Source: Escherichia phage T7. Taken from it: a stretch of 37,603 bases of DNA. Each line of letters opens with the position of its first letter. The first letter of the stretch is position 1. The position numbers and the translations under genes are program-made. This document shows, in pieces, positions 8,990-34,582 of this stretch. The notes beneath the pieces were generated by a model that saw only the letters and a program-made list of their open reading frames with translations, was not told where the DNA came from and made no database searches. Where the stretch lies: sequence record PV223881; one strand, given 5' to 3'.

Positions 8990-9012
8990 TAATTGAACTC
9001 ACTAAAGGGAGA
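8990..9012 (+). promoter_or_regulatory. T7 promoter phi3.8
   Basis: taattgaactcactaaagggaga. Confidence 0.75.
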
Positions 9013-9050
9013 CCACAGCGGTTTCCCTTTGTTCGCATTGGAGGTCAAAT
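9013..9050 (+). promoter_or_regulatory. RNase III site R3.8 (predicted from position)
   Basis: Leader ccacagcggtttccctttgttcgcattggaggtcaaataa; structure not computed. Confidence 0.35.
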
Positions 9051-9051
9051 A

Positions 9052-10801
<1,750 letters not shown>

Positions 10802-10869
10802 CAGGATTCTTGATAGTTGTTTCATATGAAGAGATTGTTAAGTCACGATAATCAATAGGAGAAATCAAT

Positions 10870-12984
10870 ATGATCGTTTCTGACATCGAAGCTAACGCCC
10901 TCTTAGAGAGCGTCACTAAGTTCCACTGCGGGGTTATCTACGACTACTCCACCGCTGAGTACGTAAGCTACCGTCCGAGTGACTTCGGTGCGTATCTGGA
11001 TGCGCTGGAAGCCGAGGTTGCACGAGGCGGTCTTATTGTGTTCCACAACGGTCACAAGTATGACGTTCCTGCATTGACCAAACTGGCAAAGTTGCAATTG
11101 AACCGAGAGTTCCACCTTCCTCGTGAGAACTGTATTGACACCCTTGTGTTGTCACGTTTGATTCATTCCAACCTCAAGGACACCGATATGGGTCTTCTGC
11201 GTTCCGGCAAGTTGCCCGGAAAACGCTTTGGGTCTCACGCTTTGGAGGCGTGGGGTTATCGCTTAGGCGAGATGAAGGGTGAATACAAAGACGACTTTAA
11301 GCGTATGCTTGAAGAGCAGGGTGAAGAATACGTTGACGGAATGGAGTGGTGGAACTTCAACGAAGAGATGATGGACTATAACGTTCAGGACGTTGTGGTA
11401 ACTAAAGCTCTCCTTGAGAAGCTACTCTCTGACAAACATTACTTCCCTCCTGAGATTAACTTTACGGACGTAGGATACACTACGTTCTGGTCAGAATCCC
11501 TTGAGGCCGTTGACATTGAACATCGTGCTGCATGGCTGCTCGCTAAACAAGAGCGCAACGGGTTCCCGTTTGACACAAAAGCAATCGAAGAGTTGTACGT
11601 AGAGTTAGCTGCTCGCCGCTCTGAGTTGCTCCGTAAATTGACCGAAACGTTCGGCTCGTGGTATCAGCCTAAAGGTGGCACTGAGATGTTCTGCCATCCG
11701 CGAACAGGTAAGCCACTACCTAAATACCCTCGCATTAAGACACCTAAAGTTGGTGGTATCTTTAAGAAGCCTAAGAACAAGGCACAGCGAGAAGGCCGTG
11801 AGCCTTGCGAACTTGATACCCGCGAGTACGTTGCTGGTGCTCCTTACACCCCAGTTGAACATGTTGTGTTTAACCCTTCGTCTCGTGACCACATTCAGAA
11901 GAAACTCCAAGAGGCTGGGTGGGTCCCGACCAAGTACACCGATAAGGGTGCTCCTGTGGTGGACGATGAGGTACTCGAAGGAGTACGTGTAGATGACCCT
12001 GAGAAGCAAGCCGCTATCGACCTCATTAAAGAGTACTTGATGATTCAGAAGCGAATCGGACAGTCTGCTGAGGGAGACAAAGCATGGCTTCGTTATGTTG
12101 CTGAGGATGGTAAGATTCATGGTTCTGTTAACCCTAATGGAGCAGTTACGGGTCGTGCGACCCATGCGTTCCCAAACCTTGCGCAAATTCCGGGTGTACG
12201 TTCTCCTTATGGAGAGCAGTGTCGCGCTGCTTTTGGCGCTGAGCACCATTTGGATGGGATAACTGGTAAGCCTTGGGTTCAGGCTGGCATCGACGCATCC
12301 GGTCTTGAGCTACGCTGCTTGGCTCACTTCATGGCTCGCTTTGATAACGGCGAGTACGCTCACGAGATTCTTAACGGCGACATCCACACTAAGAACCAGA
12401 TAGCTGCTGAACTACCTACCCGAGATAACGCTAAGACGTTCATCTATGGGTTCCTCTATGGTGCTGGTGATGAGAAGATTGGACAGATTGTTGGTGCTGG
12501 TAAAGAGCGCGGTAAGGAACTCAAGAAGAAATTCCTTGAGAACACCCCCGCGATTGCAGCACTCCGCGAGTCTATCCAACAGACACTTGTCGAGTCCTCT
12601 CAATGGGTAGCTGGTGAGCAACAAGTCAAGTGGAAACGCCGCTGGATTAAAGGTCTGGATGGTCGTAAGGTACACGTTCGTAGTCCTCACGCTGCCTTGA
12701 ATACCCTACTGCAATCTGCTGGTGCTCTCATCTGCAAACTGTGGATTATCAAGACCGAAGAGATGCTCGTAGAGAAAGGCTTGAAGCATGGCTGGGATGG
12801 GGACTTTGCGTACATGGCATGGGTACATGATGAAATCCAAGTAGGCTGCCGTACCGAAGAGATTGCTCAGGTGGTCATTGAGACCGCACAAGAAGCGATG
12901 CGCTGGGTTGGAGACCACTGGAACTTCCGGTGTCTTCTGGATACCGAAGGTAAGATGGGTCCTAATTGGGCGATTTGCCACTGA
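10870..12984 (+). CDS. 5: DNA polymerase gp5
   Basis: 704-aa [42 protein letters not shown]... Confidence 0.98.
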
Positions 12985-13029
12985 TACAGGAGGCTACTCA
13001 AAAGGCATAAAACTATAGGAGAAATTATT

Positions 13030-13329
13030 ATGGCTATGACAAAGAAATTTAAAGTGTCCTTCGACGTTACCGCAAAGATGTCGTCTGACGTTCAGGCAAT
13101 CTTAGAGAAAGATATGCTGCATCTATGTAAGCAGGTCGGCTCAGGTGCGATTGTCCCCAATGGTAAACAGAAGGAAATGATTGTCCAGTTCCTGACACAC
13201 GGTATGGAAGGATTGATGACATTCGTAGTACGTACATCATTTCGTGAGGCCATTAAGGACATGCACGAAGAGTATGCAGATAAGGACTCTTTCAAACAAT
13301 CTCCTGCAACAGTACGGGAGGTGTTCTGA
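13030..13329 (+). CDS. 5.5: gp5.5 (H-NS binding protein)
   Basis: 99-aa ORF MAMTKKFKVSFDVTAKMSSDVQAILEKDML... Confidence 0.9.
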   Translation: MAMTKKFKVSFDVTAKMSSDVQAILEKDMLHLCKQVGSGAIVPNGKQKEMIVQFLTHGMEGLMTFVVRTSFREAIKDMHEEYADKDSFKQSPATVREVF

Positions 13330-13538
13330 TGTCTGACTACCTGAAAGTGCTGCAAGCAATCAAAAGTTGCCCTAAGACTTTCCAGTCCAACTATGTACGG
13401 AACAATGCGAGCCTCGTAGCGGAGGCCGCTTCCCGTGGTCACATCTCGTGCCTGACTACTAGTGGACGTAACGGTGGCGCTTGGGAAATCACTGCTTCCG
13501 GTACTCGCTTTCTGAAACGAATGGGAGGATGTGTCTAA
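13329..13538 (+). CDS. 5.7: gp5.7
   Basis: 69-aa ORF MSDYLKVLQAIKSCPKTFQSNYVRNN...; start overlaps 5.5 stop. Confidence 0.88.
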   Translation: MSDYLKVLQAIKSCPKTFQSNYVRNNASLVAEAASRGHISCLTTSGRNGGAWEITASGTRFLKRMGGCV

Positions 13539-13696
13539 TGTCTCGTGACCTTGTGACTATTCCACGCGATGTGTGGAACGATATACAGGGCTACATCGAC
13601 TCTCTGGAACGTGAGAACGATAGCCTTAAGAATCAACTAATGGAAGCTGACGAATACGTAGCGGAACTAGAGGAGAAACTTAATGGCACTTCTTGA
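13538..13696 (+). CDS. 5.9: gp5.9 (RecBCD inhibitor)
   Basis: ATG at 13538 overlapping 5.7 stop; MSRDLVTIPRDVWNDIQGYIDSLERENDSLKNQLMEADEYVAELEEKLNGTS. Confidence 0.85.
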   Translation: MSRDLVTIPRDVWNDIQGYIDSLERENDSLKNQLMEADEYVAELEEKLNGTS

Positions 13697-14585
13697 CCTT
13701 AAACAATTCTATGAGTTACGTGAAGGCTGCGACGACAAGGGTATCCTTGTGATGGACGGCGACTGGCTGGTCTTCCAAGCTATGAGTGCTGCTGAGTTTG
13801 ATGCCTCTTGGGAGGAAGAGATTTGGCACCGATGCTGTGACCACGCTAAGGCCCGTCAGATTCTTGAGGATTCCATTAAGTCCTACGAGACCCGTAAGAA
13901 GGCTTGGGCAGGTGCTCCAATTGTCCTTGCGTTCACCGATAGTGTTAACTGGCGTAAAGAACTGGTTGACCCGAACTATAAGGCTAACCGTAAGGCCGTG
14001 AAGAAACCTGTAGGGTACTTTGAGTTCCTTGATGCTCTCTTTGAGCGCGAAGAGTTCTATTGCATCCGTGAGCCTATGCTTGAGGGTGATGACGTTATGG
14101 GAGTTATTGCTTCCAATCCGTCTGCCTTCGGTGCTCGTAAGGCTGTAATCATCTCTTGCGATAAGGACTTTAAGACCATCCCTAACTGTGACTTCCTGTG
14201 GTGTACCACTGGTAACATCCTGACTCAGACCGAAGAGTCCGCTGACTGGTGGCACCTCTTCCAGACCATCAAGGGTGACATCACTGATGGTTACTCAGGG
14301 ATTGCTGGATGGGGTGATACCGCCGAGGACTTCTTGAATAACCCGTTCATAACCGAGCCTAAAACGTCTGTGCTTAAGTCCGGTAAGAACAAAGGCCAAG
14401 AGGTTACTAAATGGGTTAAACGCGACCCTGAGCCTCATGAGACGCTTTGGGACTGCATTAAGTCCATTGGCGCGAAGGCTGGTATGACCGAAGAGGATAT
14501 TATCAAGCAGGGCCAAATGGCTCGAATCCTACGGTTCAACGAGTACAACTTTATTGACAAGGAGATTTACCTGTGGAGACCGTAG
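13683..14585 (+). CDS. 6: 5'-3' exonuclease gp6
   Basis: 300-aa ORF MALLDLKQFYELREGCDDKGILVMDGDWLVFQAM... Confidence 0.97.
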   Translation: MALLDLKQFYELREGCDDKGILVMDGDWLVFQAMSAAEFDASWEEEIWHRCCDHAKARQILEDSIKSYETRKKAWAGAPIVLAFTDSVNWRKELVDPNYKANRKAVKKPVGYFEFLDALFEREEFYCIREPMLEGDDVMGVIASNPSAFGARKAVIISCDKDFKTIPNCDFLWCTTGNILTQTEESADWWHLFQTIKGDITDGYSGIAGWGDTAEDFLNNPFITEPKTSVLKSGKNKGQEVTKWVKRDPEPHETLWDCIKSIGAKAGMTEEDIIKQGQMARILRFNEYNFIDKEIYLWRP

Positions 14586-14686
14586 CGTATATTGGTCTGG
14601 GTCTTTGTGTTCTCGGAGTGTGCCTCATTTCGTGGGGCCTTTGGGACTTAGCCAGAATAATCAAGTCGTTACACGACACTAAGTGA
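14573..14686 (+). CDS. 6.3: gp6.3 (37 aa, GTG start)
   Basis: GTG at 14573 in frame to TGA at 14684-14686; ...AYIGLGLCVLGVCLISWGLWDLARIIKSLHDTK. Confidence 0.6.
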   Translation: METVAYIGLGLCVLGVCLISWGLWDLARIIKSLHDTK

Positions 14687-14706
14687 TAAACTCAAGGTCC
14701 CTAAAT

Positions 14707-14729
14707 TAATACGACTCACTATAGGGAGA
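14707..14729 (+). promoter_or_regulatory. T7 class III promoter phi6.5
   Basis: taatacgactcactatagggaga (exact consensus). Confidence 0.9.
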
Positions 14730-14780
14730 TAGGGGCCTTTACGATTATTACTTTAAGATTTAACTCTAAGAGGAATCTTT
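14730..14780 (+). promoter_or_regulatory. RNase III site R6.5 (predicted from position)
   Basis: Leader after phi6.5; structure not computed. Confidence 0.35.
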
Positions 14781-14783
14781 ATT

Positions 14784-15038
14784 ATGTTAACACCTATTAA
14801 CCAATTACTTAAGAACCCTAACGATATTCCAGATGTACCTCGTGCAACCGCTGAGTATCTACAGGTTCGATTCAACTATGCGTACCTCGAAGCGTCTGGT
14901 CATATAGGACTTATGCGTGCTAATGGTTGTAGTGAGGCCCACATCTTGGGTTTCATTCAGGGCCTACAGTATGCCTCTAACGTCATTGACGAGATTGAGT
15001 TACGCAAGGAACAACTAAGAGATGATGGGGAGGATTGA
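14784..15038 (+). CDS. 6.5: gp6.5
   Basis: 84-aa [33 protein letters not shown]... Confidence 0.88.
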
Positions 15039-15042
15039 CACT

Positions 15043-15309
15043 ATGTGTTTCTCACCGAAAATTAAAACTCCGAAGATGGATACCAATCAGATTCGAGCCG
15101 TTGAGCCAGCGCCTCTGACCCAAGAAGTGTCAAGCGTGGAGTTCGGTGGGTCTTCTGATGAGACGGATACCGAGGGCACCGAAGTGTCTGGACGCAAAGG
15201 CCTCAAGGTCGAACGTGATGATTCCGTAGCGAAGTCTAAAGCCAGCGGCAATGGCTCCGCTCGTATGAAATCTTCCATCCGTAAGTCCGCATTTGGAGGT
15301 AAGAAGTGA
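15043..15309 (+). CDS. 6.7: gp6.7 (virion protein)
   Basis: ATG 15043, MCFSPKIKTPKMDTNQIRAVEPAP... 88 aa. Confidence 0.85.
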   Translation: MCFSPKIKTPKMDTNQIRAVEPAPLTQEVSSVEFGGSSDETDTEGTEVSGRKGLKVERDDSVAKSKASGNGSARMKSSIRKSAFGGKK

Positions 15310-15710
15310 TGTCTGAGTTCACATGTGTGGAGGCTAAGAGTCGCTTCCGTGCAATCCGGTGGACTGTGGAACACCTTGGGTTGCCTAAAGGATTCGAAGG
15401 ACACTTTGTGGGCTACAGCCTCTACGTAGACGAAGTGATGGACATGTCTGGTTGCCGTGAAGAGTACATTCTGGACTCTACCGGAAAACATGTAGCGTAC
15501 TTCGCGTGGTGCGTAAGCTGTGACATTCACCACAAAGGAGACATTCTGGATGTAACGTCCGTTGTCATTAATCCTGAGGCAGACTCTAAGGGCTTACAGC
15601 GATTCCTAGCGAAACGCTTTAAGTACCTTGCGGAACTCCACGATTGCGATTGGGTGTCTCGTTGTAAGCATGAAGGCGAGACAATGCGTGTATACTTTAA
15701 GGAGGTATAA
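15309..15710 (+). CDS. 7: gp7 (host-range / virion assembly protein)
   Basis: ATG 15309 overlapping 6.7 stop; MSEFTCVEAKSRFRAIRWTVEHLGLPKGF... 133 aa. Confidence 0.85.
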   Translation: MSEFTCVEAKSRFRAIRWTVEHLGLPKGFEGHFVGYSLYVDEVMDMSGCREEYILDSTGKHVAYFAWCVSCDIHHKGDILDVTSVVINPEADSKGLQRFLAKRFKYLAELHDCDWVSRCKHEGETMRVYFKEV

Positions 15711-15713
15711 GTT

Positions 15714-16013
15714 ATGGGTAAGAAAGTTAAGAAGGCCGTGAAGAAAGTCACCAAGTCCGTTAAGAAAGTCGTTAAGGAAGGGGCTCGTCCGGTTAAACAG
15801 GTTGCTGGCGGTCTAGCTGGTCTGGCTGGTGGTACTGGTGAAGCACAGATGGTGGAAGCACCACAAGCTGCCGCACAGATTGTTGACGTACCTGAGAAAG
15901 AGGTTTCCACTGAGGACGAAGCACAGACAGAAAGCGGACGCAAGAAAGCTCGTGCTGGCGGTAAGAAATCCTTGAGTGTAGCCCGTAGCTCCGGTGGCGG
16001 TATCAACATTTAA
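15714..16013 (+). CDS. 7.3: gp7.3 (virion/tail-associated protein)
   Basis: 99-aa lysine-rich ORF MGKKVKKAVKKVTKSVKKVVKEG... Confidence 0.88.
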   Translation: MGKKVKKAVKKVTKSVKKVVKEGARPVKQVAGGLAGLAGGTGEAQMVEAPQAAAQIVDVPEKEVSTEDEAQTESGRKKARAGGKKSLSVARSSGGGINI

Positions 16014-16026
16014 TCAGGAGGTTATC

Positions 16027-16290
16027 GTGGAAGACTGCATTGAATGGACCGGAGGTGTCAACTCTAAGGGTTATGGTCGTAAGTGGGTTAATGGTAAACT
16101 TGTGACTCCACATAGGCACATCTATGAGGAGACATATGGTCCAGTTCCAACAGGAATTGTGGTGATGCATATCTGCGATAACCCTAGGTGCTATAACATA
16201 AAGCACCTTACGCTTGGAACTCCAAAGGATAATTCCGAGGACATGGTTACCAAAGGTAGACAGGCTAAAGGAGAGGAACTAAGCAAGTAA
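16027..16290 (+). pseudogene. 7.7: Gene 7.7 (HNH endonuclease-like) truncated after codon 87 by the inserted cassette
   Basis: GTG 16027 (ggagg SD); VEDCIEWTGGVNSKGYGRKWVNGKLV...GEELSK then TAA supplied by the inserted promoter's TAATACGACTC. Confidence 0.75.
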
Positions 16291-16310
16291 TACGACTCAC
16301 TATAGGCCTC
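16288..16310 (+). promoter_or_regulatory. Inserted consensus T7 promoter (pET-type, no lac operator)
   Basis: taatacgactcactatagg directly followed by cctctagaaataattttg; not at any native T7 promoter position. Confidence 0.9.
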
Positions 16311-16350
16311 TAGAAATAATTTTGTTTAACTTTAAGAAGGAGATATACAT
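16309..16350 (+). promoter_or_regulatory. Synthetic 5' leader: XbaI site plus gene-10 (pET) RBS
   Basis: tctagaaataattttgtttaactttaagaaggagatatacat, then NdeI catatg at the start codon. Confidence 0.9.
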
Positions 16351-17874
16351 ATGGGCAGCAGCCATCATCATCATCATCACAGCAGCGGCGCTAAGACTCA
16401 AGCAGAAATAAATAAACGTTTAGACGCTTATGCAAAAGGTACAGTAGACAGTCCTTATAGAATTAAAAAAGCTACAAGCTATGACCCATCGTTTGGTGTA
16501 ATGGAAGCAGGAGCAATTGACGCAGATGGTTACTATCATGCACAGTGCCAAGACTTAATTACTGATTATGTATTATGGTTAACAGATAATAAAGTTAGAA
16601 CTTGGGGTAATGCTAAAGACCAAATCAAACAAAGTTATGGTACTGGATTTAAAATACATGAAAATAAACCTTCTACAGTACCTAAAAAAGGATGGATTGC
16701 TGTATTTACATCCGGTAGTTATCAGCAATGGGGTCACATAGGTATTGTATATGATGGAGGTAATACTTCTACATTTACTATTTTAGAGCAAAACTGGAAC
16801 GGTTACGCTAATAAAAAACCTACAAAACGTGTAGATAATTATTACGGATTAACTCATTTTATTGAGATACCTGTAAAAGCAGGAACTACTGTTAAAAAAG
16901 AAACAGCTAAGAAAAGTGCAAGTAAAACACCTGCACCTAAAAAGAAAGCAACACTAAAAGTTTCTAAGAACCATATTAACTATACAATGGATAAACGTGG
17001 TAAGAAACCTGAAGGAATGGTAATACACAACGATGCAGGTCGTTCTTCAGGGCAACAATACGAGAATTCATTAGCTAACGCAGGTTATGCTAGATATGCT
17101 AATGGTATTGCTCATTACTATGGCTCTGAAGGTTATGTATGGGAAGCAATAGATGCTAAGAATCAAATTGCTTGGCACACAGGAGATGGAACAGGAGCAA
17201 ACTCAGGTAACTTTAGATTTGCAGGTATTGAAGTCTGTCAATCAATGAGTGCTAGTGATGCTCAATTCCTTAAAAACGAACAAGCAGTATTCCAATTTAC
17301 TGCAGAGAAATTTAAAGAATGGGGTCTTACTCCTAATCGTAAAACTGTAAGATTGCATATGGAATTTGTTCCAACAGCTTGTCCTCATCGTTCTATGGTT
17401 CTTCATACAGGATTTAATCCAGTAACACAAGGAAGACCATCTCAAGCAATAATGAATAAACTAAAAGATTATTTCATTAAACAAATTAAAAACTACATGG
17501 ATAAAGGAACTTCAAGTTCTACAGTAGTTAAAGACGGTAAAACAAGTAGCGCAAGTACACCGGCAACTAGACCAGTAACAGGCTCTTGGAAAAAGAACCA
17601 GTACGGAACTTGGTACAAACCGGAAAATGCAACATTTGTTAATGGTAACCAACCTATAGTAACTAGAATAGGTTCTCCATTCTTAAATGCTCCAGTAGGA
17701 GGTAACTTACCGGCAGGAGCTACAATTGTATATGACGAAGTTTGTATCCAAGCAGGTCACATTTGGATAGGTTACAATGCTTACAATGGTGACAGAGTAT
17801 ATTGCCCTGTTAGAACTTGTCAAGGAGTTCCACCTAATCATATACCTGGGGTTGCCTGGGGAGTATTCAAATAG
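16351..17874 (+). CDS. lysK: Heterologous His6-tagged staphylococcal phage endolysin (LysK family: CHAP peptidase, amidase_2, SH3b cell-wall binding)
   Basis: [13 protein letters not shown] tag then [24 protein letters not shown]...YHAQCQDL (CHAP Cys) ...[15 protein letters not shown]; AT-rich codon usage unlike the T7 backbone. Confidence 0.9.
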
Positions 17875-17906
17875 TACTACAGCGTAAGACATGGAGACAC
17901 ATTTAA
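17875..17906 (+). other. Retained 3' end of gene 7.7 carrying the gene 8 RBS and overlapping stop/start (TAATG)
   Basis: tactacagcgtaagacatggagacacatttaATG immediately before gene 8, as in T7. Confidence 0.6.
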
Positions 17907-19516
17907 TGGCTGAGAAACGAACAGGACTTGCGGAGGATGGCGCAAAGTCTGTCTATGAGCGTTTAAAGAACGACCGTGCTCCCTATGAGACACGCGCTCA
18001 GAATTGCGCTCAATATACCATCCCATCATTGTTCCCTAAGGACTCCGATAACGCCTCTACAGATTATCAAACTCCGTGGCAAGCCGTGGGCGCTCGTGGT
18101 CTGAACAATCTAGCCTCTAAGCTCATGCTGGCTCTATTCCCTATGCAGACTTGGATGCGACTTACTATATCTGAATATGAAGCAAAGCAGTTACTGAGCG
18201 ACCCCGATGGACTCGCTAAGGTCGATGAGGGCCTCTCGATGGTAGAGCGTATCATCATGAACTACATTGAGTCTAACAGTTACCGCGTGACTCTCTTTGA
18301 GGCTCTCAAACAGTTAGTCGTAGCTGGTAACGTCCTGCTGTACCTACCGGAACCGGAAGGGTCAAACTATAATCCCATGAAGCTGTACCGATTGTCTTCT
18401 TATGTGGTCCAACGAGACGCATTCGGCAACGTTCTGCAAATGGTGACTCGTGACCAGATAGCTTTTGGTGCTCTCCCTGAGGACATCCGTAAGGCTGTAG
18501 AAGGTCAAGGTGGTGAGAAGAAAGCTGATGAGACAATCGACGTGTACACTCACATCTATCTGGATGAGGACTCAGGTGAATACCTCCGATACGAAGAGGT
18601 CGAGGGTATGGAAGTCCAAGGCTCCGATGGGACTTATCCTAAAGAGGCTTGCCCATACATCCCGATTCGGATGGTCAGACTAGATGGTGAATCCTACGGT
18701 CGTTCGTACATTGAGGAATACTTAGGTGACTTACGGTCCCTTGAAAATCTCCAAGAGGCTATCGTCAAGATGTCCATGATTAGCTCTAAGGTTATCGGCT
18801 TAGTGAATCCTGCTGGTATCACCCAGCCACGCCGACTGACCAAAGCTCAGACTGGTGACTTCGTTACTGGTCGTCCAGAAGACATCTCGTTCCTCCAACT
18901 GGAGAAGCAAGCAGACTTTACTGTAGCTAAAGCCGTAAGTGACGCTATCGAGGCTCGCCTTTCGTTTGCCTTTATGTTGAACTCTGCGGTTCAGCGTACA
19001 GGTGAACGTGTGACCGCCGAAGAGATTCGGTATGTAGCTTCTGAACTTGAAGATACTTTAGGTGGTGTCTACTCTATCCTTTCTCAAGAATTACAATTGC
19101 CTCTGGTACGAGTGCTCTTGAAGCAACTACAAGCCACGCAACAGATTCCTGAGTTACCTAAGGAAGCCGTAGAGCCAACCATTAGTACAGGTCTGGAAGC
19201 AATTGGTCGAGGACAAGACCTTGATAAGCTGGAGCGGTGTGTCACTGCGTGGGCTGCACTGGCACCTATGCGGGACGACCCTGATATTAACCTTGCGATG
19301 ATTAAGTTACGTATTGCCAACGCTATCGGTATTGACACTTCTGGTATTCTACTCACCGAAGAACAGAAGCAACAGAAGATGGCCCAACAGTCTATGCAAA
19401 TGGGTATGGATAATGGTGCTGCTGCGCTGGCTCAAGGTATGGCTGCACAAGCTACAGCTTCACCTGAGGCTATGGCTGCTGCCGCTGATTCCGTAGGTTT
19501 ACAGCCGGGAATTTAA
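17906..19516 (+). CDS. 8: Head-to-tail connector (portal) protein gp8
   Basis: MAEKRTGLAEDGAKSVYERLKNDRAPYETRAQNCAQYTIPSLFP... 536 aa. Confidence 0.97.
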   Translation: MAEKRTGLAEDGAKSVYERLKNDRAPYETRAQNCAQYTIPSLFPKDSDNASTDYQTPWQAVGARGLNNLASKLMLALFPMQTWMRLTISEYEAKQLLSDPDGLAKVDEGLSMVERIIMNYIESNSYRVTLFEALKQLVVAGNVLLYLPEPEGSNYNPMKLYRLSSYVVQRDAFGNVLQMVTRDQIAFGALPEDIRKAVEGQGGEKKADETIDVYTHIYLDEDSGEYLRYEEVEGMEVQGSDGTYPKEACPYIPIRMVRLDGESYGRSYIEEYLGDLRSLENLQEAIVKMSMISSKVIGLVNPAGITQPRRLTKAQTGDFVTGRPEDISFLQLEKQADFTVAKAVSDAIEARLSFAFMLNSAVQRTGERVTAEEIRYVASELEDTLGGVYSILSQELQLPLVRVLLKQLQATQQIPELPKEAVEPTISTGLEAIGRGQDLDKLERCVTAWAALAPMRDDPDINLAMIKLRIANAIGIDTSGILLTEEQKQQKMAQQSMQMGMDNGAAALAQGMAAQATASPEAMAAAADSVGLQPGI

Positions 19517-19536
19517 TACGACTCACTATAGGGAGA
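19514..19536 (+). promoter_or_regulatory. T7 class III promoter phi9
   Basis: taatacgactcactatagggaga. Confidence 0.9.
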
Positions 19537-19615
19537 CCTCATCTTTGAAATGAGCGATGACAAGAGGTTGGAGTCCTCGGTCTTCCTGTAGTTCAACTTT
19601 AAGGAGACAATAATA

Positions 19616-20539
19616 ATGGCTGAATCTAATGCAGACGTATATGCATCTTTTGGCGTGAACTCCGCTGTGATGTCTGGTGGTTCCGTTGAGGAACATGAGC
19701 AGAACATGCTGGCTCTTGATGTTGCTGCCCGTGATGGCGATGATGCAATCGAGTTAGCGTCAGACGAAGTGGAAACAGAACGTGACCTGTATGACAACTC
19801 TGACCCGTTCGGTCAAGAGGATGACGAAGGCCGCATTCAGGTTCGTATCGGTGATGGCTCTGAGCCGACCGATGTGGACACTGGAGAAGAAGGCGTTGAG
19901 GGCACCGAAGGTTCCGAAGAGTTTACCCCACTGGGCGAGACTCCAGAAGAACTGGTAGCTGCCTCTGAGCAACTTGGTGAGCACGAAGAGGGCTTCCAAG
20001 AGATGATTAACATTGCTGCTGAGCGTGGCATGAGTGTCGAGACCATTGAGGCTATCCAGCGTGAGTACGAGGAGAACGAAGAGTTGTCCGCCGAGTCCTA
20101 CGCTAAGCTGGCTGAAATTGGCTACACGAAGGCTTTCATTGACTCGTATATCCGTGGTCAAGAAGCTCTGGTGGAGCAGTACGTAAACAGTGTCATTGAG
20201 TACGCTGGTGGTCGTGAACGTTTTGATGCACTGTATAACCACCTTGAGACGCACAACCCTGAGGCTGCACAGTCGCTGGATAATGCGTTGACCAATCGTG
20301 ACTTAGCGACCGTTAAGGCTATCATCAACTTGGCTGGTGAGTCTCGCGCTAAGGCGTTCGGTCGTAAGCCAACTCGTAGTGTGACTAATCGTGCTATTCC
20401 GGCTAAACCTCAGGCTACCAAGCGTGAAGGCTTTGCGGACAGTAGCGAGATGATTAAAGCTATGAGTGACCCTCGGTATCGCACAGATGCCAACTATCGT
20501 CGTCAAGTCGAACAGAAAGTAATCGATTCGAACTTCTGA
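19616..20539 (+). CDS. 9: Capsid assembly (scaffolding) protein gp9
   Basis: 307-aa acidic ORF MAESNADVYASFGVNSAVMSGGSVEEHEQNMLALD... Confidence 0.96.
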   Translation: MAESNADVYASFGVNSAVMSGGSVEEHEQNMLALDVAARDGDDAIELASDEVETERDLYDNSDPFGQEDDEGRIQVRIGDGSEPTDVDTGEEGVEGTEGSEEFTPLGETPEELVAASEQLGEHEEGFQEMINIAAERGMSVETIEAIQREYEENEELSAESYAKLAEIGYTKAFIDSYIRGQEALVEQYVNSVIEYAGGRERFDALYNHLETHNPEAAQSLDNALTNRDLATVKAIINLAGESRAKAFGRKPTRSVTNRAIPAKPQATKREGFADSSEMIKAMSDPRYRTDANYRRQVEQKVIDSNF

Positions 20540-20552
20540 TAGACTTCGAAAT

Positions 20553-20575
20553 TAATACGACTCACTATAGGGAGA
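20553..20575 (+). promoter_or_regulatory. T7 class III promoter phi10
   Basis: taatacgactcactatagggaga followed by the gene 10 leader stem-loop. Confidence 0.92.
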
Positions 20576-20632
20576 CCACAACGGTTTCCCTCTAGAAATA
20601 ATTTTGTTTAACTTTAAGAAGGAGATATACAT

Positions 20633-21670
20633 ATGGCTAGCATGACTGGTGGACAGCAAATGGGTACTAACCAAGGTAAAGGTGTAGTTGCTGCTGGAGA
20701 TAAACTGGCGTTGTTCTTGAAGGTATTTGGCGGTGAAGTCCTGACTGCGTTCGCTCGTACCTCCGTGACCACTTCTCGCCACATGGTACGTTCCATCTCC
20801 AGCGGTAAATCCGCTCAGTTCCCTGTTCTGGGTCGCACTCAGGCAGCGTATCTGGCTCCGGGCGAGAACCTCGACGATAAACGTAAGGACATCAAACACA
20901 CCGAGAAGGTAATCACCATTGACGGTCTCCTGACGGCTGACGTTCTGATTTATGATATTGAGGACGCGATGAACCACTACGACGTTCGCTCTGAGTATAC
21001 CTCTCAGTTGGGTGAATCTCTGGCGATGGCTGCGGATGGTGCGGTTCTGGCTGAGATTGCCGGTCTGTGTAACGTGGAAAGCAAATATAATGAGAACATC
21101 GAGGGCTTAGGTACTGCTACCGTAATTGAGACCACTCAGAACAAGGCCGCACTTACCGACCAAGTTGCGCTGGGTAAGGAGATTATTGCGGCTCTGACTA
21201 AGGCTCGTGCGGCTCTGACCAAGAACTATGTTCCGGCTGCTGACCGTGTGTTCTACTGTGACCCAGATAGCTACTCTGCGATTCTGGCAGCACTGATGCC
21301 GAACGCAGCAAACTACGCTGCTCTGATTGACCCTGAGAAGGGTTCTATCCGCAACGTTATGGGCTTTGAGGTTGTAGAAGTTCCGCACCTCACCGCTGGT
21401 GGTGCTGGTACCGCTCGTGAGGGCACTACTGGTCAGAAGCACGTCTTCCCTGCCAATAAAGGTGAGGGTAATGTCAAGGTTGCTAAGGACAACGTTATCG
21501 GCCTGTTCATGCACCGCTCTGCGGTAGGTACTGTTAAGCTGCGTGACTTGGCTCTGGAGCGCGCTCGCCGTGCTAACTTCCAAGCGGACCAGATTATCGC
21601 TAAGTACGCAATGGGCCACGGTGGTCTTCGCCCAGAAGCTGCTGGTGCAGTGGTTTTCAAAGTGGAGTAA
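20633..21670 (+). CDS. 10A: Major capsid protein gp10A
   Basis: 345-aa ORF MASMTGGQQMGTNQGKGVVAAGDKLALFLKVFGG...AVVFKVE. Confidence 0.98.
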   Translation: MASMTGGQQMGTNQGKGVVAAGDKLALFLKVFGGEVLTAFARTSVTTSRHMVRSISSGKSAQFPVLGRTQAAYLAPGENLDDKRKDIKHTEKVITIDGLLTADVLIYDIEDAMNHYDVRSEYTSQLGESLAMAADGAVLAEIAGLCNVESKYNENIEGLGTATVIETTQNKAALTDQVALGKEIIAALTKARAALTKNYVPAADRVFYCDPDSYSAILAALMPNAANYAALIDPEKGSIRNVMGFEVVEVPHLTAGGAGTAREGTTGQKHVFPANKGEGNVKVAKDNVIGLFMHRSAVGTVKLRDLALERARRANFQADQIIAKYAMGHGGLRPEAAGAVVFKVE

Positions 21671-21828
21671 TGCTGGGGGTGGCCTCAACGGTCGCTGCTA
21701 GTCCCGAAGAGGCGAGTGTTACTTCAACAGAAGAAACCTTAACGCCAGCACAGAAGGCCGCACGCACCCGCGCTGCTAACAAAGCCCGAAAGGAAGCTGA
21801 GTTGACTGCTGCCACCGCTGAGCAATAA
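20633..21828 (+). CDS. 10B: Minor capsid protein gp10B, made by programmed -1 frameshift near the end of 10A
   Basis: -1 frame stays open past the 10A stop to TAA at 21826-21828; slippery ggttttc run near 21653. Confidence 0.75.
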
Positions 21829-21876
21829 CTAGCATAACCCCTTGGGGCCTCTAAACGGGTCTTGAGGGGTTTTTTG
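21829..21876 (+). terminator. T7 RNAP terminator Tphi
   Basis: ctagcataaccccttggggcctctaaacgggtcttgaggggttttttg. Confidence 0.92.
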
Positions 21877-21893
21877 CTGAAAGGAGGAACTAT

Positions 21894-22484
21894 ATGCGCT
21901 CATGCGATATGAACGTTGAGACTGCCGCTGAGTTATCAGCTGTGAACGACATTCTGGCGTCTATCGGTGAACCTCCGGTATCAACGCTGGAAGGTGACGC
22001 TAACGCAGATGTAGCGAACGCTCGGCGTATTCTCAACAAGATTAACCGACAGATTCAATCTCGTGGATGGACGTTCAACATTGAGGAAGGCATAACGCTA
22101 CTACCTGATGTTTACTCCAACCTGATTGTATACAGTGACGACTATTTATCCCTAATGTCTACTTCCGGTCAATCCATCTACGTTAACCGAGGTGGCTATG
22201 TGTATGACCGAACGAGTCAATCAGACCGCTTTGACTCTGGTATTACTGTGAACATTATTCGTCTCCGCGACTACGATGAGATGCCTGAGTGCTTCCGTTA
22301 CTGGATTGTCACCAAGGCTTCCCGTCAGTTCAACAACCGATTCTTTGGGGCACCGGAAGTAGAGGGTGTACTCCAAGAAGAGGAAGATGAGGCTAGACGT
22401 CTCTGCATGGAGTATGAGATGGACTACGGTGGGTACAATATGCTGGATGGAGATGCGTTCACTTCTGGTCTACTGACTCGCTAA
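21894..22484 (+). CDS. 11: Tail tubular protein A gp11
   Basis: 196-aa [38 protein letters not shown]... Confidence 0.96.
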
Positions 22485-22507
22485 CATTAATAAATAAGGA
22501 GGCTCTA

Positions 22508-24892
22508 ATGGCACTCATTAGCCAATCAATCAAGAACTTGAAGGGTGGTATCAGCCAACAGCCTGACATCCTTCGTTATCCAGACCAAGGGTCACGCCAA
22601 GTTAACGGTTGGTCTTCGGAGACCGAGGGCCTCCAAAAGCGTCCACCTCTTGTTTTCTTAAATACACTTGGAGACAACGGTGCGTTAGGTCAAGCTCCGT
22701 ACATCCACCTGATTAACCGAGATGAGCACGAACAGTATTACGCTGTGTTCACTGGTAGCGGAATCCGAGTGTTCGACCTTTCTGGTAACGAGAAGCAAGT
22801 TAGGTATCCTAACGGTTCCAACTACATCAAGACCGCTAATCCACGTAACGACCTGCGAATGGTTACTGTAGCAGACTATACGTTCATCGTTAACCGTAAC
22901 GTTGTTGCACAGAAGAACACAAAGTCTGTCAACTTACCGAATTACAACCCTAATCAAGACGGATTGATTAACGTTCGTGGTGGTCAGTATGGTAGGGAAC
23001 TAATTGTACACATTAACGGTAAAGACGTTGCGAAGTATAAGATACCAGATGGTAGTCAACCTGAACACGTAAACAATACGGATGCCCAATGGTTAGCTGA
23101 AGAGTTAGCCAAGCAGATGCGCACTAACTTGTCTGATTGGACTGTAAATGTAGGGCAAGGGTTCATCCATGTGACCGCACCTAGTGGTCAACAGATTGAC
23201 TCCTTCACGACTAAAGATGGCTACGCAGACCAGTTGATTAACCCTGTGACCCACTACGCTCAGTCGTTCTCTAAGCTGCCACCTAATGCTCCTAACGGCT
23301 ACATGGTGAAAATCGTAGGGGACGCCTCTAAGTCTGCCGACCAGTATTACGTTCGGTATGACGCTGAGCGGAAAGTTTGGACTGAGACTTTAGGTTGGAA
23401 CACTGAGGACCAAGTTCTATGGGAAACCATGCCACACGCTCTTGTGCGAGCCGCTGACGGTAATTTCGACTTCAAGTGGCTTGAGTGGTCTCCTAAGTCT
23501 TGTGGTGACGTTGACACCAACCCTTGGCCTTCTTTTGTTGGTTCAAGTATTAACGATGTGTTCTTCTTCCGTAACCGCTTAGGATTCCTTAGTGGGGAGA
23601 ACATCATATTGAGTCGTACAGCCAAATACTTCAACTTCTACCCTGCGTCCATTGCGAACCTTAGTGATGACGACCCTATAGACGTAGCTGTGAGTACCAA
23701 CCGAATAGCAATCCTTAAGTACGCCGTTCCGTTCTCAGAAGAGTTACTCATCTGGTCCGATGAAGCACAATTCGTCCTGACTGCCTCGGGTACTCTCACA
23801 TCTAAGTCGGTTGAGTTGAACCTAACGACCCAGTTTGACGTACAGGACCGAGCGAGACCTTTTGGGATTGGGCGTAATGTCTACTTTGCTAGTCCGAGGT
23901 CCAGCTTCACGTCCATCCACAGGTACTACGCTGTGCAGGATGTCAGTTCCGTTAAGAATGCTGAGGACATTACATCACACGTTCCTAACTACATCCCTAA
24001 TGGTGTGTTCAGTATTTGCGGAAGTGGTACGGAAAACTTCTGTTCGGTACTATCTCACGGGGACCCTAGTAAAATCTTCATGTACAAATTCCTGTACCTG
24101 AACGAAGAGTTAAGGCAACAGTCGTGGTCTCATTGGGACTTTGGGGAAAACGTACAGGTTCTAGCTTGTCAGAGTATCAGCTCAGATATGTATGTGATTC
24201 TTCGCAATGAGTTCAATACGTTCCTAGCTAGAATCTCTTTCACTAAGAACGCCATTGACTTACAGGGAGAACCCTATCGTGCCTTTATGGACATGAAGAT
24301 TCGATACACGATTCCTAGTGGAACATACAACGATGACACATTCACTACCTCTATTCATATTCCAACAATTTATGGTGCAAACTTCGGGAGGGGCAAAATC
24401 ACTGTATTGGAGCCTGATGGTAAGATAACCGTGTTTGAGCAACCTACGGCTGGGTGGAATAGCGACCCTTGGCTGAGACTCAGCGGTAACTTGGAGGGAC
24501 GCATGGTGTACATTGGGTTCAACATTAACTTCGTATATGAGTTCTCTAAGTTCCTCATCAAGCAGACTGCCGACGACGGGTCTACCTCCACGGAAGACAT
24601 TGGGCGCTTACAGTTACGCCGAGCGTGGGTTAACTACGAGAACTCTGGTACGTTTGACATTTATGTTGAGAACCAATCGTCTAACTGGAAGTACACAATG
24701 ACTGGTGCCCGATTAGGCTCTAACACTCTGAGGGCTGGGAGACTGAACTTAGGGACCGGACAATATCGATTCCCTGTGGTTGGTAACGCCAAGTTCAACA
24801 CTGTATACATCTTGTCAGATGAGACTACCCCTCTGAACATCATTGGGTGTGGCTGGGAAGGTAACTACTTACGGAGAAGTTCCGGTATTTAA
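22508..24892 (+). CDS. 12: Tail tubular protein B gp12
   Basis: 794-aa ORF MALISQSIKNLKGGISQQPDILRYPDQGSRQVNGW... Confidence 0.97.
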   Translation: MALISQSIKNLKGGISQQPDILRYPDQGSRQVNGWSSETEGLQKRPPLVFLNTLGDNGALGQAPYIHLINRDEHEQYYAVFTGSGIRVFDLSGNEKQVRYPNGSNYIKTANPRNDLRMVTVADYTFIVNRNVVAQKNTKSVNLPNYNPNQDGLINVRGGQYGRELIVHINGKDVAKYKIPDGSQPEHVNNTDAQWLAEELAKQMRTNLSDWTVNVGQGFIHVTAPSGQQIDSFTTKDGYADQLINPVTHYAQSFSKLPPNAPNGYMVKIVGDASKSADQYYVRYDAERKVWTETLGWNTEDQVLWETMPHALVRAADGNFDFKWLEWSPKSCGDVDTNPWPSFVGSSINDVFFFRNRLGFLSGENIILSRTAKYFNFYPASIANLSDDDPIDVAVSTNRIAILKYAVPFSEELLIWSDEAQFVLTASGTLTSKSVELNLTTQFDVQDRARPFGIGRNVYFASPRSSFTSIHRYYAVQDVSSVKNAEDITSHVPNYIPNGVFSICGSGTENFCSVLSHGDPSKIFMYKFLYLNEELRQQSWSHWDFGENVQVLACQSISSDMYVILRNEFNTFLARISFTKNAIDLQGEPYRAFMDMKIRYTIPSGTYNDDTFTTSIHIPTIYGANFGRGKITVLEPDGKITVFEQPTAGWNSDPWLRLSGNLEGRMVYIGFNINFVYEFSKFLIKQTADDGSTSTEDIGRLQLRRAWVNYENSGTFDIYVENQSSNWKYTMTGARLGSNTLRAGRLNLGTGQYRFPVVGNAKFNTVYILSDETTPLNIIGCGWEGNYLRRSSGI

Positions 24893-24894
24893 TT

Positions 24895-24970
24895 AAATAT
24901 TCTCCCTGTGGTGGCTCGAAATTAATACGACTCACTATAGGGAGAACAATACGACTACGGGAGGGTTTTC
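24895..24970 (+). promoter_or_regulatory. RNase III site R13 region (predicted from position; overlaps phi13)
   Basis: Leader around phi13; structure not computed. Confidence 0.35.
24923..24945 (+). promoter_or_regulatory. T7 class III promoter phi13
   Basis: taatacgactcactatagggaga. Confidence 0.9.
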
Positions 24971-24972
24971 TT

Positions 24973-25389
24973 ATGATGACTATAAGACCTACTAAAAGTA
25001 CAGACTTTGAGGTATTCACTCCGGCTCACCATGACATTCTTGAAGCTAAGGCTGCTGGTATTGAGCCGAGTTTCCCTGATGCTTCCGAGTGTGTCACGTT
25101 GAGCCTCTATGGGTTCCCTCTAGCTATCGGTGGTAACTGCGGGGACCAGTGCTGGTTCGTTACGAGCGACCAAGTGTGGCGACTTAGTGGAAAGGCTAAG
25201 CGAAAGTTCCGTAAGTTAATCATGGAGTATCGCGATAAGATGCTTGAGAAGTATGATACTCTTTGGAATTACGTATGGGTAGGCAATACGTCCCACATTC
25301 GTTTCCTCAAGACTATCGGTGCGGTATTCCATGAAGAGTACACACGAGATGGTCAATTTCAGTTATTTACAATCACGAAAGGAGGATAA
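24973..25389 (+). CDS. 13: Internal virion protein gp13
   Basis: 138-aa ORF MMTIRPTKSTDFEVFTPAHHDILEAKAAGIEPSFPD... Confidence 0.93.
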   Translation: MMTIRPTKSTDFEVFTPAHHDILEAKAAGIEPSFPDASECVTLSLYGFPLAIGGNCGDQCWFVTSDQVWRLSGKAKRKFRKLIMEYRDKMLEKYDTLWNYVWVGNTSHIRFLKTIGAVFHEEYTRDGQFQLFTITKGG

Positions 25390-25393
25390 CCAT

Positions 25394-25984
25394 ATGTGTT
25401 GGGCAGCCGCAATACCTATCGCTATATCTGGCGCTCAGGCTATCAGTGATCAGAACGCTCAGGCCAAAATGATTGCCGCTCAGACCGCTGCTGGTCGTCG
25501 TCAAGCTATGGAAATCATGAGGCAGACGAACATCCAGAATGCTGACCTATCGTTGTCAGCTCGAAGTAAACTTGAGGAAGCGTCCGCCGAGTTGACCTCA
25601 CAGAACATGCAGAAGGTCCAAGCTATTGGGTCTATCCGAGCGGCTATCGGAGAGAGTATGCTTGAAGGTTCCTCAATGGACCGCATTAAGCGAGTCACAG
25701 AAGGACAGTTCATTCGGGAAGCCAATATGGTAACTGAGAACTATCGCCGTGACTACCAAGCAATCTTCGCACAGCAACTTGGTGGTACTCAAAGTGCTGC
25801 AAGTCAGATTGACGAAATCTATAAGAGCGAACAGAAACAGAAGAGTAAGCTACAGATGGTTCTGGACCCACTGGCTATCATGGGGTCTTCCGCTGCGAGT
25901 GCTTACGCATCCGGTGCGTTCGACTCTAAGTCCACAACTAAGGCACCTATTGTTGCCGCTAAAGGAACCAAGACGGGGAGGTAA
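25394..25984 (+). CDS. 14: Internal core protein gp14
   Basis: ATG 25394 after ggagg SD; MCWAAAIPIAISGAQAISDQNAQAKMIAAQTAAG... 196 aa. Confidence 0.93.
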   Translation: MCWAAAIPIAISGAQAISDQNAQAKMIAAQTAAGRRQAMEIMRQTNIQNADLSLSARSKLEEASAELTSQNMQKVQAIGSIRAAIGESMLEGSSMDRIKRVTEGQFIREANMVTENYRRDYQAIFAQQLGGTQSAASQIDEIYKSEQKQKSKLQMVLDPLAIMGSSAASAYASGAFDSKSTTKAPIVAAKGTKTGR

Positions 25985-25990
25985 TGAGCT

Positions 25991-28234
25991 ATGAGTAAAA
26001 TTGAATCTGCCCTTCAAGCGGCACAACCGGGACTCTCTCGGTTACGTGGTGGTGCTGGAGGTATGGGCTATCGTGCAGCAACCACTCAGGCCGAACAGCC
26101 AAGGTCAAGCCTATTGGACACCATTGGTCGGTTCGCTAAGGCTGGTGCCGATATGTATACCGCTAAGGAACAACGAGCACGAGACCTAGCTGATGAACGC
26201 TCTAACGAGATTATCCGTAAGCTGACCCCTGAGCAACGTCGAGAAGCTCTCAACAACGGGACCCTTCTGTATCAGGATGACCCATACGCTATGGAAGCAC
26301 TCCGAGTCAAGACTGGTCGTAACGCTGCGTATCTTGTGGACGATGACGTTATGCAGAAGATAAAAGAGGGTGTCTTCCGTACTCGCGAAGAGATGGAAGA
26401 GTATCGCCATAGTCGCCTTCAAGAGGGCGCTAAGGTATACGCTGAGCAGTTCGGCATCGACCCTGAGGACGTTGATTATCAGCGTGGTTTCAACGGGGAC
26501 ATTACCGAGCGTAACATCTCGCTGTATGGTGCGCATGATAACTTCTTGAGCCAGCAAGCTCAGAAGGGCGCTATCATGAACAGCCGAGTGGAACTCAACG
26601 GTGTCCTTCAAGACCCTGATATGCTGCGTCGTCCAGACTCTGCTGACTTCTTTGAGAAGTATATCGACAACGGTCTGGTTACTGGCGCAATCCCATCTGA
26701 TGCTCAAGCCACACAGCTTATAAGCCAAGCGTTCAGTGACGCTTCTAGCCGTGCTGGTGGTGCTGACTTCCTGATGCGAGTCGGTGACAAGAAGGTAACA
26801 CTTAACGGAGCCACTACGACTTACCGAGAGTTGATTGGTGAGGAACAGTGGAACGCTCTCATGGTCACAGCACAACGTTCTCAGTTTGAGACTGACGCGA
26901 AGCTGAACGAGCAGTATCGCTTGGAGATTAACTCTGCGCTGAACCAAGAGGACCCAAGGACAGCTTGGGAGATGCTTCAAGGTATCAAGGCTGAACTAGA
27001 TAAGGTCCAACCTGATGAGCAGATGACACCACAACGTGAGTGGCTAATCTCCGCACAGGAACAAGTTCAGAATCAGATGAACGCATGGACGAAAGCTCAG
27101 GCCAAGGCTCTGGACGATTCCATGAAGTCAATGAACAAACTTGACGTAATCGACAAGCAATTCCAGAAGCGAATCAACGGTGAGTGGGTCTCAACGGATT
27201 TTAAGGATATGCCAGTCAACGAGAACACTGGTGAGTTCAAGCATAGCGATATGGTTAACTACGCCAATAAGAAGCTCGCTGAGATTGACAGTATGGACAT
27301 TCCAGACGGTGCCAAGGATGCTATGAAGTTGAAGTACCTTCAAGCGGACTCTAAGGACGGAGCATTCCGTACAGCCATCGGAACCATGGTCACTGACGCT
27401 GGTCAAGAGTGGTCTGCCGCTGTGATTAACGGTAAGTTACCAGAACGAACCCCAGCTATGGATGCTCTGCGCAGAATCCGCAATGCTGACCCTCAGTTGA
27501 TTGCTGCGCTATACCCAGACCAAGCTGAGCTATTCCTGACGATGGACATGATGGACAAGCAGGGTATTGACCCTCAGGTTATTCTTGATGCCGACCGACT
27601 GACTGTTAAGCGGTCCAAAGAGCAACGCTTTGAGGATGATAAAGCATTCGAGTCTGCACTGAATGCATCTAAGGCTCCTGAGATTGCCCGTATGCCAGCG
27701 TCACTGCGCGAATCTGCACGTAAGATTTATGACTCCGTTAAGTATCGCTCGGGGAACGAAAGCATGGCTATGGAGCAGATGACCAAGTTCCTTAAGGAAT
27801 CTACCTACACGTTCACTGGTGATGATGTTGACGGTGATACCGTTGGTGTGATTCCTAAGAATATGATGCAGGTTAACTCTGACCCGAAATCATGGGAGCA
27901 AGGTCGGGATATTCTGGAGGAAGCACGTAAGGGAATCATTGCGAGCAACCCTTGGATAACCAATAAGCAACTGACCATGTATTCTCAAGGTGACTCCATT
28001 TACCTTATGGACACCACAGGTCAAGTCAGAGTCCGATACGACAAAGAGTTACTCTCGAAGGTCTGGAGTGAGAACCAGAAGAAACTCGAAGAGAAAGCTC
28101 GTGAGAAGGCTCTGGCTGATGTGAACAAGCGAGCACCTATAGTTGCCGCTACGAAGGCCCGTGAAGCTGCTGCTAAACGAGTCCGAGAGAAACGTAAACA
28201 GACTCCTAAGTTCATCTACGGACGTAAGGAGTAA
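25991..28234 (+). CDS. 15: Internal core protein gp15
   Basis: 747-aa ORF MSKIESALQAAQPGLSRLRGGAGGMGYRAATTQAEQPR... Confidence 0.96.
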   Translation: MSKIESALQAAQPGLSRLRGGAGGMGYRAATTQAEQPRSSLLDTIGRFAKAGADMYTAKEQRARDLADERSNEIIRKLTPEQRREALNNGTLLYQDDPYAMEALRVKTGRNAAYLVDDDVMQKIKEGVFRTREEMEEYRHSRLQEGAKVYAEQFGIDPEDVDYQRGFNGDITERNISLYGAHDNFLSQQAQKGAIMNSRVELNGVLQDPDMLRRPDSADFFEKYIDNGLVTGAIPSDAQATQLISQAFSDASSRAGGADFLMRVGDKKVTLNGATTTYRELIGEEQWNALMVTAQRSQFETDAKLNEQYRLEINSALNQEDPRTAWEMLQGIKAELDKVQPDEQMTPQREWLISAQEQVQNQMNAWTKAQAKALDDSMKSMNKLDVIDKQFQKRINGEWVSTDFKDMPVNENTGEFKHSDMVNYANKKLAEIDSMDIPDGAKDAMKLKYLQADSKDGAFRTAIGTMVTDAGQEWSAAVINGKLPERTPAMDALRRIRNADPQLIAALYPDQAELFLTMDMMDKQGIDPQVILDADRLTVKRSKEQRFEDDKAFESALNASKAPEIARMPASLRESARKIYDSVKYRSGNESMAMEQMTKFLKESTYTFTGDDVDGDTVGVIPKNMMQVNSDPKSWEQGRDILEEARKGIIASNPWITNKQLTMYSQGDSIYLMDTTGQVRVRYDKELLSKVWSENQKKLEEKAREKALADVNKRAPIVAATKAREAAAKRVREKRKQTPKFIYGRKE

Positions 28235-28260
28235 CTAAAGGCTACATAAGGAGGCCCTAA

Positions 28261-32217: not shown

Positions 32218-32237
32218 TACGACTCACTATAGGGAGA
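32215..32237 (+). promoter_or_regulatory. T7 class III promoter phi17
   Basis: taatacgactcactatagggaga overlapping the gene 16 stop. Confidence 0.9.
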
Positions 32238-32289
32238 GGCGAAATAATCTTCTCCCTGTAGTCTCTTAGATTTACTTTAAGGAGGTCAA

Positions 32290-33951: not shown

Positions 33952-34009
33952 TTGGTAAATCACAAGGAAAGACGTGTAGTCCACGGATGGACTCTCAAGG
34001 AGGTACAAG

Positions 34010-34213: not shown

Positions 34214-34218
34214 TATGT

Positions 34219-34488: not shown

Positions 34489-34494
34489 TATACT

Positions 34495-34560
34495 CAAGGC
34501 CACTACAGATAGTGGTCTTTATGGATGTCATTGTCTATACGAGATGCTCCTACGTGAAAT
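34495..34560 (+). promoter_or_regulatory. RNase III site R18.5 (predicted)
   Basis: Inverted repeat ggccactacagatagtggtc upstream of gene 18.5. Confidence 0.4.
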
Positions 34561-34582
34561 CTGAAAGTTAACGGGAGGCATT

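Follow-up and report, generated by a model that had tools for sequence, protein, structure and literature searches.

At least three independent engineering efforts have already shown that bacteriophage T7 can dispense with its 4.3-4.7 region. In a genome-wide T7 knockout screen, genes 4.2, 4.3, 4.5 and 4.7 were found to be highly dispensable (PMC11482910). The product of gene 4.5 counteracts a Lon-dependent toxin-antitoxin defence and gains importance where the host carries CcdAB, a toxin-antitoxin system under the control of Lon-dependent proteolysis, and both gp4.3 and gp4.5 have surfaced in screens of defence systems (PMC11482910).

The closest described system is the synthetic chassis T7-B, for which seamless deletions of gp1.4, gp1.7, gp3.8, gp4.3-gp4.7, gp5.3, gp7.7 and gp19.5 were made on BAC-cloned T7 segments (PMC12153263). 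The method combined Red-ccdB counter-selection with single-stranded oligonucleotides bearing two 40-nt arms, gp4.3-gp4.7 being located on segment F6; the segment with gp0.4-0.7 was left out, and the phage was assembled and rebooted (SMART method, PMC12153263). T7-B, which retains gp19.5, was selected as the chassis, and its derivative T7-B-G, deposited under accession PV223881, carries a 1.6-kb PT7-lysGH15 cassette at the gp7.7 locus (mBio 2025, PMC12153263). The authors cite the CiPGr genome-reduction study (PMC9825161) as their source of non-essential genes (PMC12153263).

Here we focus on the interval between gene 4 and gene 5 in a stretch of 37,603 nucleotides (record PV223881), referred to as the window throughout. 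The 68-bp junction found in this interval is already known: it is a published, intentional laboratory deletion of 1,019 bp, neither natural nor new. Its significance is one of bookkeeping only: the genome in the window is that of a published synthetic phage, in which the compact junction counts among the designed deletions.

The gene 4-gene 5 junction

In the reference genome NC_001604, the last base of gene 4 is 13265 and the first of gene 5 is 14353, which gives a wild-type spacer of 1,087 bp (13266-14352). In the window, the open reading frame (ORF) listing places the stop of gene 4 at 10801 and the ATG of gene 5 at 10870, leaving a spacer of 68 bp (10802..10869). The contrast drawn by the initial annotation, 68 bp against about 1.09 kb in wild-type T7, is thus borne out by the ORF coordinates and by alignment to NC_001604, and the wild type does not share the short spacing. 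Base-by-base extension of exact matches on both sides aligns window position 10814 with wild-type (WT) 13278 and window position 10815 with WT 14298, so that exactly WT 13279-14297 (1,019 bp) is absent, as a clean deletion with zero inserted bases at the junction 10814|10815. The features around this junction are as follows.

8990..9012, plus strand: promoter phi3.8, retained; 29.4 bits in the position-weight matrix (PWM) scan described below; sequence that of wild-type phi3.8
9101..10801, plus strand: gene 4A, primase/helicase, 566 aa in the ORF list; protein identical to wild-type gp4A
10190..10212, plus strand: promoter phi4c, inside gene 4; PWM 30.0 bits; identical to wild-type phi4c
10524..10829, plus strand: clipped gene 4.2 ORF, 101 aa, with 97 of 112 wild-type codons and 4 new residues (SCFI) across the junction, from its translation against WT 12988-13326
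10802..10814, plus strand: left deletion flank, the 13 bp 3' of the gene 4 stop, equal to WT 13266-13278 by exact-match extension
10814..10815, no strand: deletion junction, WT 13279-14297 (1,019 bp) missing; coordinates and size as in Table S2 of PMC12153263
10815..10851, plus strand: gene 4.7 remnant, the last 37 nt with the TAA stop at 10849-10851 and without a start codon of its own; WT gene 4.7 is 13927-14334
10852..10869, plus strand: native gene 5 translation-initiation region with AGGAG at 10857-10861; identical to WT 14335-14352
10870..12984, plus strand: gene 5, DNA polymerase, 704 aa; one substitution relative to NC_001604, D197N
14707..14729, plus strand: promoter phi6.5, the next T7 promoter downstream; PWM 39.2 bits

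According to the NC_001604 annotation, genes 4.3 and 4.5 lie entirely inside the deleted interval, and of gene 4.7 only the last 37 nt survive (window 10815-10851). By the annotation of the sibling record PV223882, which is identical in sequence here, gene 4.1 (9171-9293) is nested in gene 4 and wholly retained, and gene 4B starts at 9290 within gene 4A. The statement in the initial annotation that genes 4.1-4.7 are lost consequently holds for 4.3, 4.5 and all but 37 nt of 4.7, but is overstated for the remainder, because 4.1 is intact and 97 of the 112 codons of 4.2 remain, with only the 3' end clipped. The ORF list contains no complete ORF inside 10802-10869, and thus no extra gene in the spacer; the ORFs that overlap it all begin elsewhere, namely the clipped 4.2 tail (10524-10829) and a minus-strand ORF at 10668-10916, while the 4.7 remnant is without a start codon.

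Exact-match extension further shows that the wild-type sequence is kept over the 55 bp 5' of the gene 5 ATG, AGGAG at 10857-10861 included, which confirms that the gene 5 ribosome-binding site is intact, as first read. When the RNA of the junction and of the wild-type gene 5 leader was folded, neither was more stable than shuffled controls (z = +0.5 and -0.2, respectively), and a new structure masking the ribosome-binding site therefore finds no support. No sigma-70 promoter or plus-strand terminator created by the junction was found in 10150-11000; the single weak terminator-like hairpin in this region lies on the minus strand inside gene 4.

In addition, the DNA polymerase gene carries a G-to-A change at window 11458 (NC_001604 position 14941), which produces D197N in gp5. 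This substitution is present in T7-B and T7-B-GJ and absent from MZ375246, MZ375243, PP384394 and the reference, and it is probably private to the T7 stock or clone of the T7-B laboratory.

A designed deletion and its alternatives

The published report states that the deletion was designed and lists its coordinates; the entry for gp4.3-4.7 in the deletion table runs from 13,279 to 14,297, names gp4.3, gp4.5 and gp4.7 and gives a size of 1,019 (Table S2, PMC12153263). The breakpoints computed here (WT 13278|14298, 1,019 bp) equal this entry. Whole-genome BLAST blocks against NC_001604 resolve seven deletions and one insertion of 1,587 bp relative to the wild type: the companion deletions of gp1.4, 1.7, 3.8, 5.3 and 7.7 are present at their Table S2 coordinates, and another removes WT 1259-2739, which corresponds to the omitted F2 segment (gp0.4-0.7 region). 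As expected for T7-B, gp19.5 is retained, and the right end is colinear through WT 39937.

A 901-bp query spanning the junction is 100% identical to PV223880, PV223882 and PV223883, which are titled "Mutant Escherichia phage T7 clone recombinant T7-B...", while wild-type T7 records match the same query as two separate places. Over its whole length, the window is 100% identical to and colinear with T7-B (PV223880, 36,016 bp) at 1-16287 and 17875-37603, with no mismatches, and 100% identical to T7-B-GJ (PV223882) over 1-21671, lysGH15 cassette included. The sole difference from T7-B is the 1,587-bp T7-promoter/His6-lysGH15 cassette (36,016 + 1,587 = 37,603). This cassette (16288-17874) consists of a T7 promoter and a ribosome-binding site of the pET type, followed by a His6 tag and the endolysin LysGH15 from Staphylococcus phage GH15; it begins TAATACGACTCACTATAGG...ATGGGCAGCAGCCATCATCATCATCATCAC, its His6 tag is N-terminal, and its T7 promoter, TAATACGACTCACTATAGG, has no lac operator. 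It substitutes for 100 bp of gene 7.7 (WT 20109-20208), the first ~261 nt of which are kept upstream at about 16027-16287. The lyJDSS3 cassette is absent after gene 10, and from 17875 to its end the window runs colinear with T7-B. The sibling records and the tables of the published report together identify the window, by inference, as T7-B-G, a derivative of T7-B.

The spacer is accordingly read as the scar-free junction of a designed deletion in the T7-B chassis, an origin that the initial annotation had missed, and nothing in the sequence speaks against an engineered origin. Red-ccdB recombineering with a single-stranded oligonucleotide carrying two 40-nt arms would have removed WT 13279-14297 from the BAC-cloned segment; the edited segment would then have been assembled and the phage rebooted to give T7-B, and insertion of the lysGH15 cassette at the gene 7.7 locus would have given T7-B-G. 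The presumed purpose was to free packaging capacity by removing the dispensable genes 4.3, 4.5 and 4.7, the promoters phi4.3 and phi4.7 and the R4.7 hairpin. We are close to certain of this explanation as a whole, including the consequences for transcription and growth that are set out below.

A collapse of the gene 4-gene 5 region through an assembly or sequencing artefact has a negligible probability, given that the identical junction occurs in three independently deposited sibling genomes and that the authors verified the deletions by PCR and whole-genome sequencing (PMC12153263). The breakpoints equal the design table, which likewise disfavours an artefact. Nor does a natural T7-like lineage with a compact gene 4-gene 5 junction have any appreciable likelihood. 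The content of this spacer does vary among relatives, with T3, phiSG-JL2 and Klebsiella phages having some 600 bp less of it than T7, but among the matches listed, T3, phiSG-JL2 and the Klebsiella and Salmonella relatives all keep about 600 bp or more, with 4.3 and 4.5, and the T3 spacer has an annotated R4.7 site and a promoter. Every one-piece match across the junction among those listed is a labelled T7 mutant or recombinant and none is a natural phage, and the window also contains the pET-style cassette of T7 promoter, ribosome-binding site and His6 tag that expresses a staphylococcal phage endolysin. A natural compact variant was therefore rejected, as no natural relative among the matches listed has the junction of the window.

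A spontaneous origin deserves closer attention, since the deletion is flanked by a 14-nt imperfect direct repeat, ACAGG(A/T)TTCTTGA(T/C), with one copy (ACAGGATTCTTGAT) at WT 13265-13278 and the other (ACAGGTTTCTTGAC) at 14284-14297. These copies are exactly 1,019 bp apart and bound the deletion, and recombination between them, as in the CiPGr genome-reduction lines, followed by inheritance, could be envisaged. The CiPGr paper describes an undesigned 'large fragment' loss of gp4.3-4.7 (PMC9825161), and the 901-bp junction query is matched in one piece, at 99.7-99.8%, by at least 25 records derived from CiPGr (MZ3752xx, OL964741). The junction of the CiPGr record MZ375246 retains the right-hand repeat copy (ACAGGTTTCTTGAC), whereas the window retains the whole left-hand copy, the last mismatched T included, and then continues at WT 14298. 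The CiPGr-type junction CTGACAGGTTTCTTGACAGTTG, as read in MZ375246 (the sole CiPGr record checked), does not occur in the window, which has ACAGGATTCTTGATAGTTG instead. There is no homology to the right of the junction point 13278|14298, and a simple crossover within the shared bases therefore does not yield the sequence of the window, while an oligonucleotide designed on the wild-type coordinates 13278|14298 does. Owing to this two-base difference at the junction and the published design, the spontaneous, repeat-mediated deletion was ruled out as a candidate, and we consider it very improbable as the origin of the window.

The junction of MZ375246 is what would be expected from a crossover in the shared ACAGG, and the left-copy junction of the window appears to result from rebuilding the deletion on wild-type sequence from right-justified alignment coordinates. 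We infer that the designers of T7-B copied the coordinates of the spontaneous CiPGr deletion. In another CiPGr record, MZ375243 (T7_60L; L007 1903-2791), a smaller deletion of ~198 bp removes 4.3 and keeps 4.5 and 4.7; the gene 4-gene 5 interval was thus reduced in more than one way in the CiPGr experiment.

Several further observations concern the remainder of the genome. At the left end, the deletion of WT 1259-2739 begins within gene 0.3 (ocr, window 925-1318), with its junction 1258|1259 at the short repeat GGAAGTCGAGGA, and the predicted translation of Ocr exchanges the last 6 residues (YEEDEE) for a 20-residue out-of-frame tail from the gene 0.7 remnant. Relative to NC_001604, there are 15 single-base differences at 20441-35075 (late region, genes 9-19) and further single differences at 4830, 7781 and 15859, all of which are common to T7-B. 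Positions 1-160 and 37444-37603 are identical 160-bp direct terminal repeats, which makes the window a linear genome of full length; in the sibling GenBank records these repeats carry the label 'cohesive-end site', a mis-annotation for T7.

Transcription and growth of the compacted genome

T7 promoters were located with a PWM derived from the 17 annotated promoters of NC_001604, on which real promoters score 26-39 bits; it replaced a consensus search with at most 3 mismatches, which had missed phi3.8, phi4c and other class II promoters. The matrix recovers every expected T7 promoter in the window. Between phi4c and phi6.5 (10213-14706, both strands) no T7 promoter was detected, the best score being 4.7 bits as compared with at least 26 for real ones, and the consensus search with at most 3 mismatches also found none in 10213-14706. 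The wild-type promoters phi4.3 (+1 at 13341) and phi4.7 (+1 at 13915) both fall within the deleted WT 13279-14297 (NC_001604), and in the window genome no T7 promoter lies closer upstream of gene 5 than phi4c. RNA folding also places a long interrupted hairpin inside the deleted interval, at about WT 13854-13903 (-24.1 kcal/mol, z = -2.3). This hairpin sits at the RNase III site R4.7, which we take to lie at about 13892 on the T7 map drawn by Dunn and Studier in 1983.

The proposals of the initial annotation on transcription thus stand: the interval 10213-14706, including the spacer 10802-10869, holds no T7 promoter-like 23-mer by the PWM, phi4.3, phi4.7 and R4.7 are all lost (R4.7 as placed by the assumed map position and one fold), and gene 5 can be reached from upstream promoters only. 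Since phi4c is followed by no further T7 promoter before phi6.5, gene 5 must be read from the upstream class II promoters. Those intact in the window by PWM are phi1.1A, phi1.1B, phi1.3, phi1.6, phi2.5, phi3.8 and phi4c, and phi1.5 is altered. The gp1.4 deletion ends inside phi1.5 (window 6124-6146), where TAAT at positions -17 to -14 has become TTTA and the score drops from 33.9 to 20.2 bits. In the T7-B study, reporter expression was lowest at the gp1.4 locus (PMC12153263).

The deletion takes away the two promoters nearest to gene 5, phi4.3 and phi4.7, and transcription of the gene would now depend entirely on T7 RNA polymerase that started at phi1.1A, phi1.1B, phi1.3, the damaged phi1.5, phi1.6, phi2.5, phi3.8 and phi4c. 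On the T7 map, T7 RNA polymerase is not known to meet a terminator from the class II promoters up to Tphi, which follows gene 10, and wild-type gene 5 would therefore already be transcribed from all upstream class II promoters. The same map reportedly has wild-type gene 5 read by run-through from all of these promoters. Given such run-through, two of ~10 contributing promoters are lost, and the gene had not depended on these two alone.

The sequences around the RNase III sites R3.8 and R6.5, the positions of which we take from the T7 map, are retained in the window. With R4.7 gone and these surroundings kept, genes 4 and 5 would share one RNase III-bounded mRNA of ~5.7 kb, from R3.8 to R6.5, and would no longer be separated at R4.7, gene 5 presumably being translated from its unchanged ribosome-binding site. 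Genome entry of T7 is transcription-coupled, and the upstream deletions, which bring gene 5 ~3.5 kb nearer to the first-entering genome end, could also slightly advance its entry.

The growth cost of these changes would be small. T7-B forms plaques comparable to those of the wild type, with a burst of 197±9 as compared with 224±9 for seven deletions combined, and a reporter cassette placed at the gp4.3-4.7 locus gave viable phage (PMC12153263). The mild phenotype of T7-B, in which seven deletions act together, sets an upper bound on the effect of any altered timing or level of the polymerase. Removal of phi4.3, phi4.7 and R4.7 might nonetheless, through one long gene 4-gene 5 mRNA, have a measurable effect on how much DNA polymerase is made, or when, and so explain some of the ~12% drop in T7-B burst; we regard this as unlikely. 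If true, T7-B would be a ready-made test of the contribution of internal class II promoters and RNase III sites to T7 gene dosage.

Comparison with described T7 genomes

The junction confirms that T7 can grow on laboratory E. coli without genes 4.3-4.7, two class II promoters and one RNase III site. The lost genes may matter on other hosts, given the anti-toxin-antitoxin role of gp4.5 and the appearance of gp4.3 and gp4.5 in defence screens (PMC11482910), and the effective host range of the chassis may thus be narrower than that of the wild type.

In comparison with the wild type (NC_001604, 13266-14352), the flanking genes, phi4c and the gene 5 ribosome-binding site are those of the window; unlike the window, the wild-type interval spans 1,087 bp with the 3' end of 4.2, phi4.3, 4.3, 4.5, R4.7, phi4.7 and 4.7. 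A third minimal phage, T7_mini (PP384394, USA), engineered independently, resembles the window in being without phi4.3, 4.3, 4.5, R4.7, phi4.7 and most of 4.7, and in having gene 5 read from upstream promoters, but differs in its breakpoints, a 160-bp spacer, longer 4.2 and 4.7 ends and a short linker.

The CiPGr T7 mutants (MZ3752xx, OL964741; NAR 2022, PMC9825161) come closer: they have lost the same 1,019 bp of gp4.3-4.7, and their genes 4 and 5 likewise stand 68 bp apart. Two junction bases distinguish MZ375246 from the window (A/T at 10809 and T/C at 10814), the CiPGr deletion is undesigned, unlike that of the window, and the other deletions in the CiPGr genomes differ as well. In T7-B, T7-B-G, T7-B-J and T7-B-GJ (PV223880-PV223883), finally, the junction sequence, the deletion coordinates 13,279-14,297 and the other deletions are those of the window; T7-B-GJ shares its lysGH15 cassette and carries, in addition, the lyJDSS3 cassette that the window is without.
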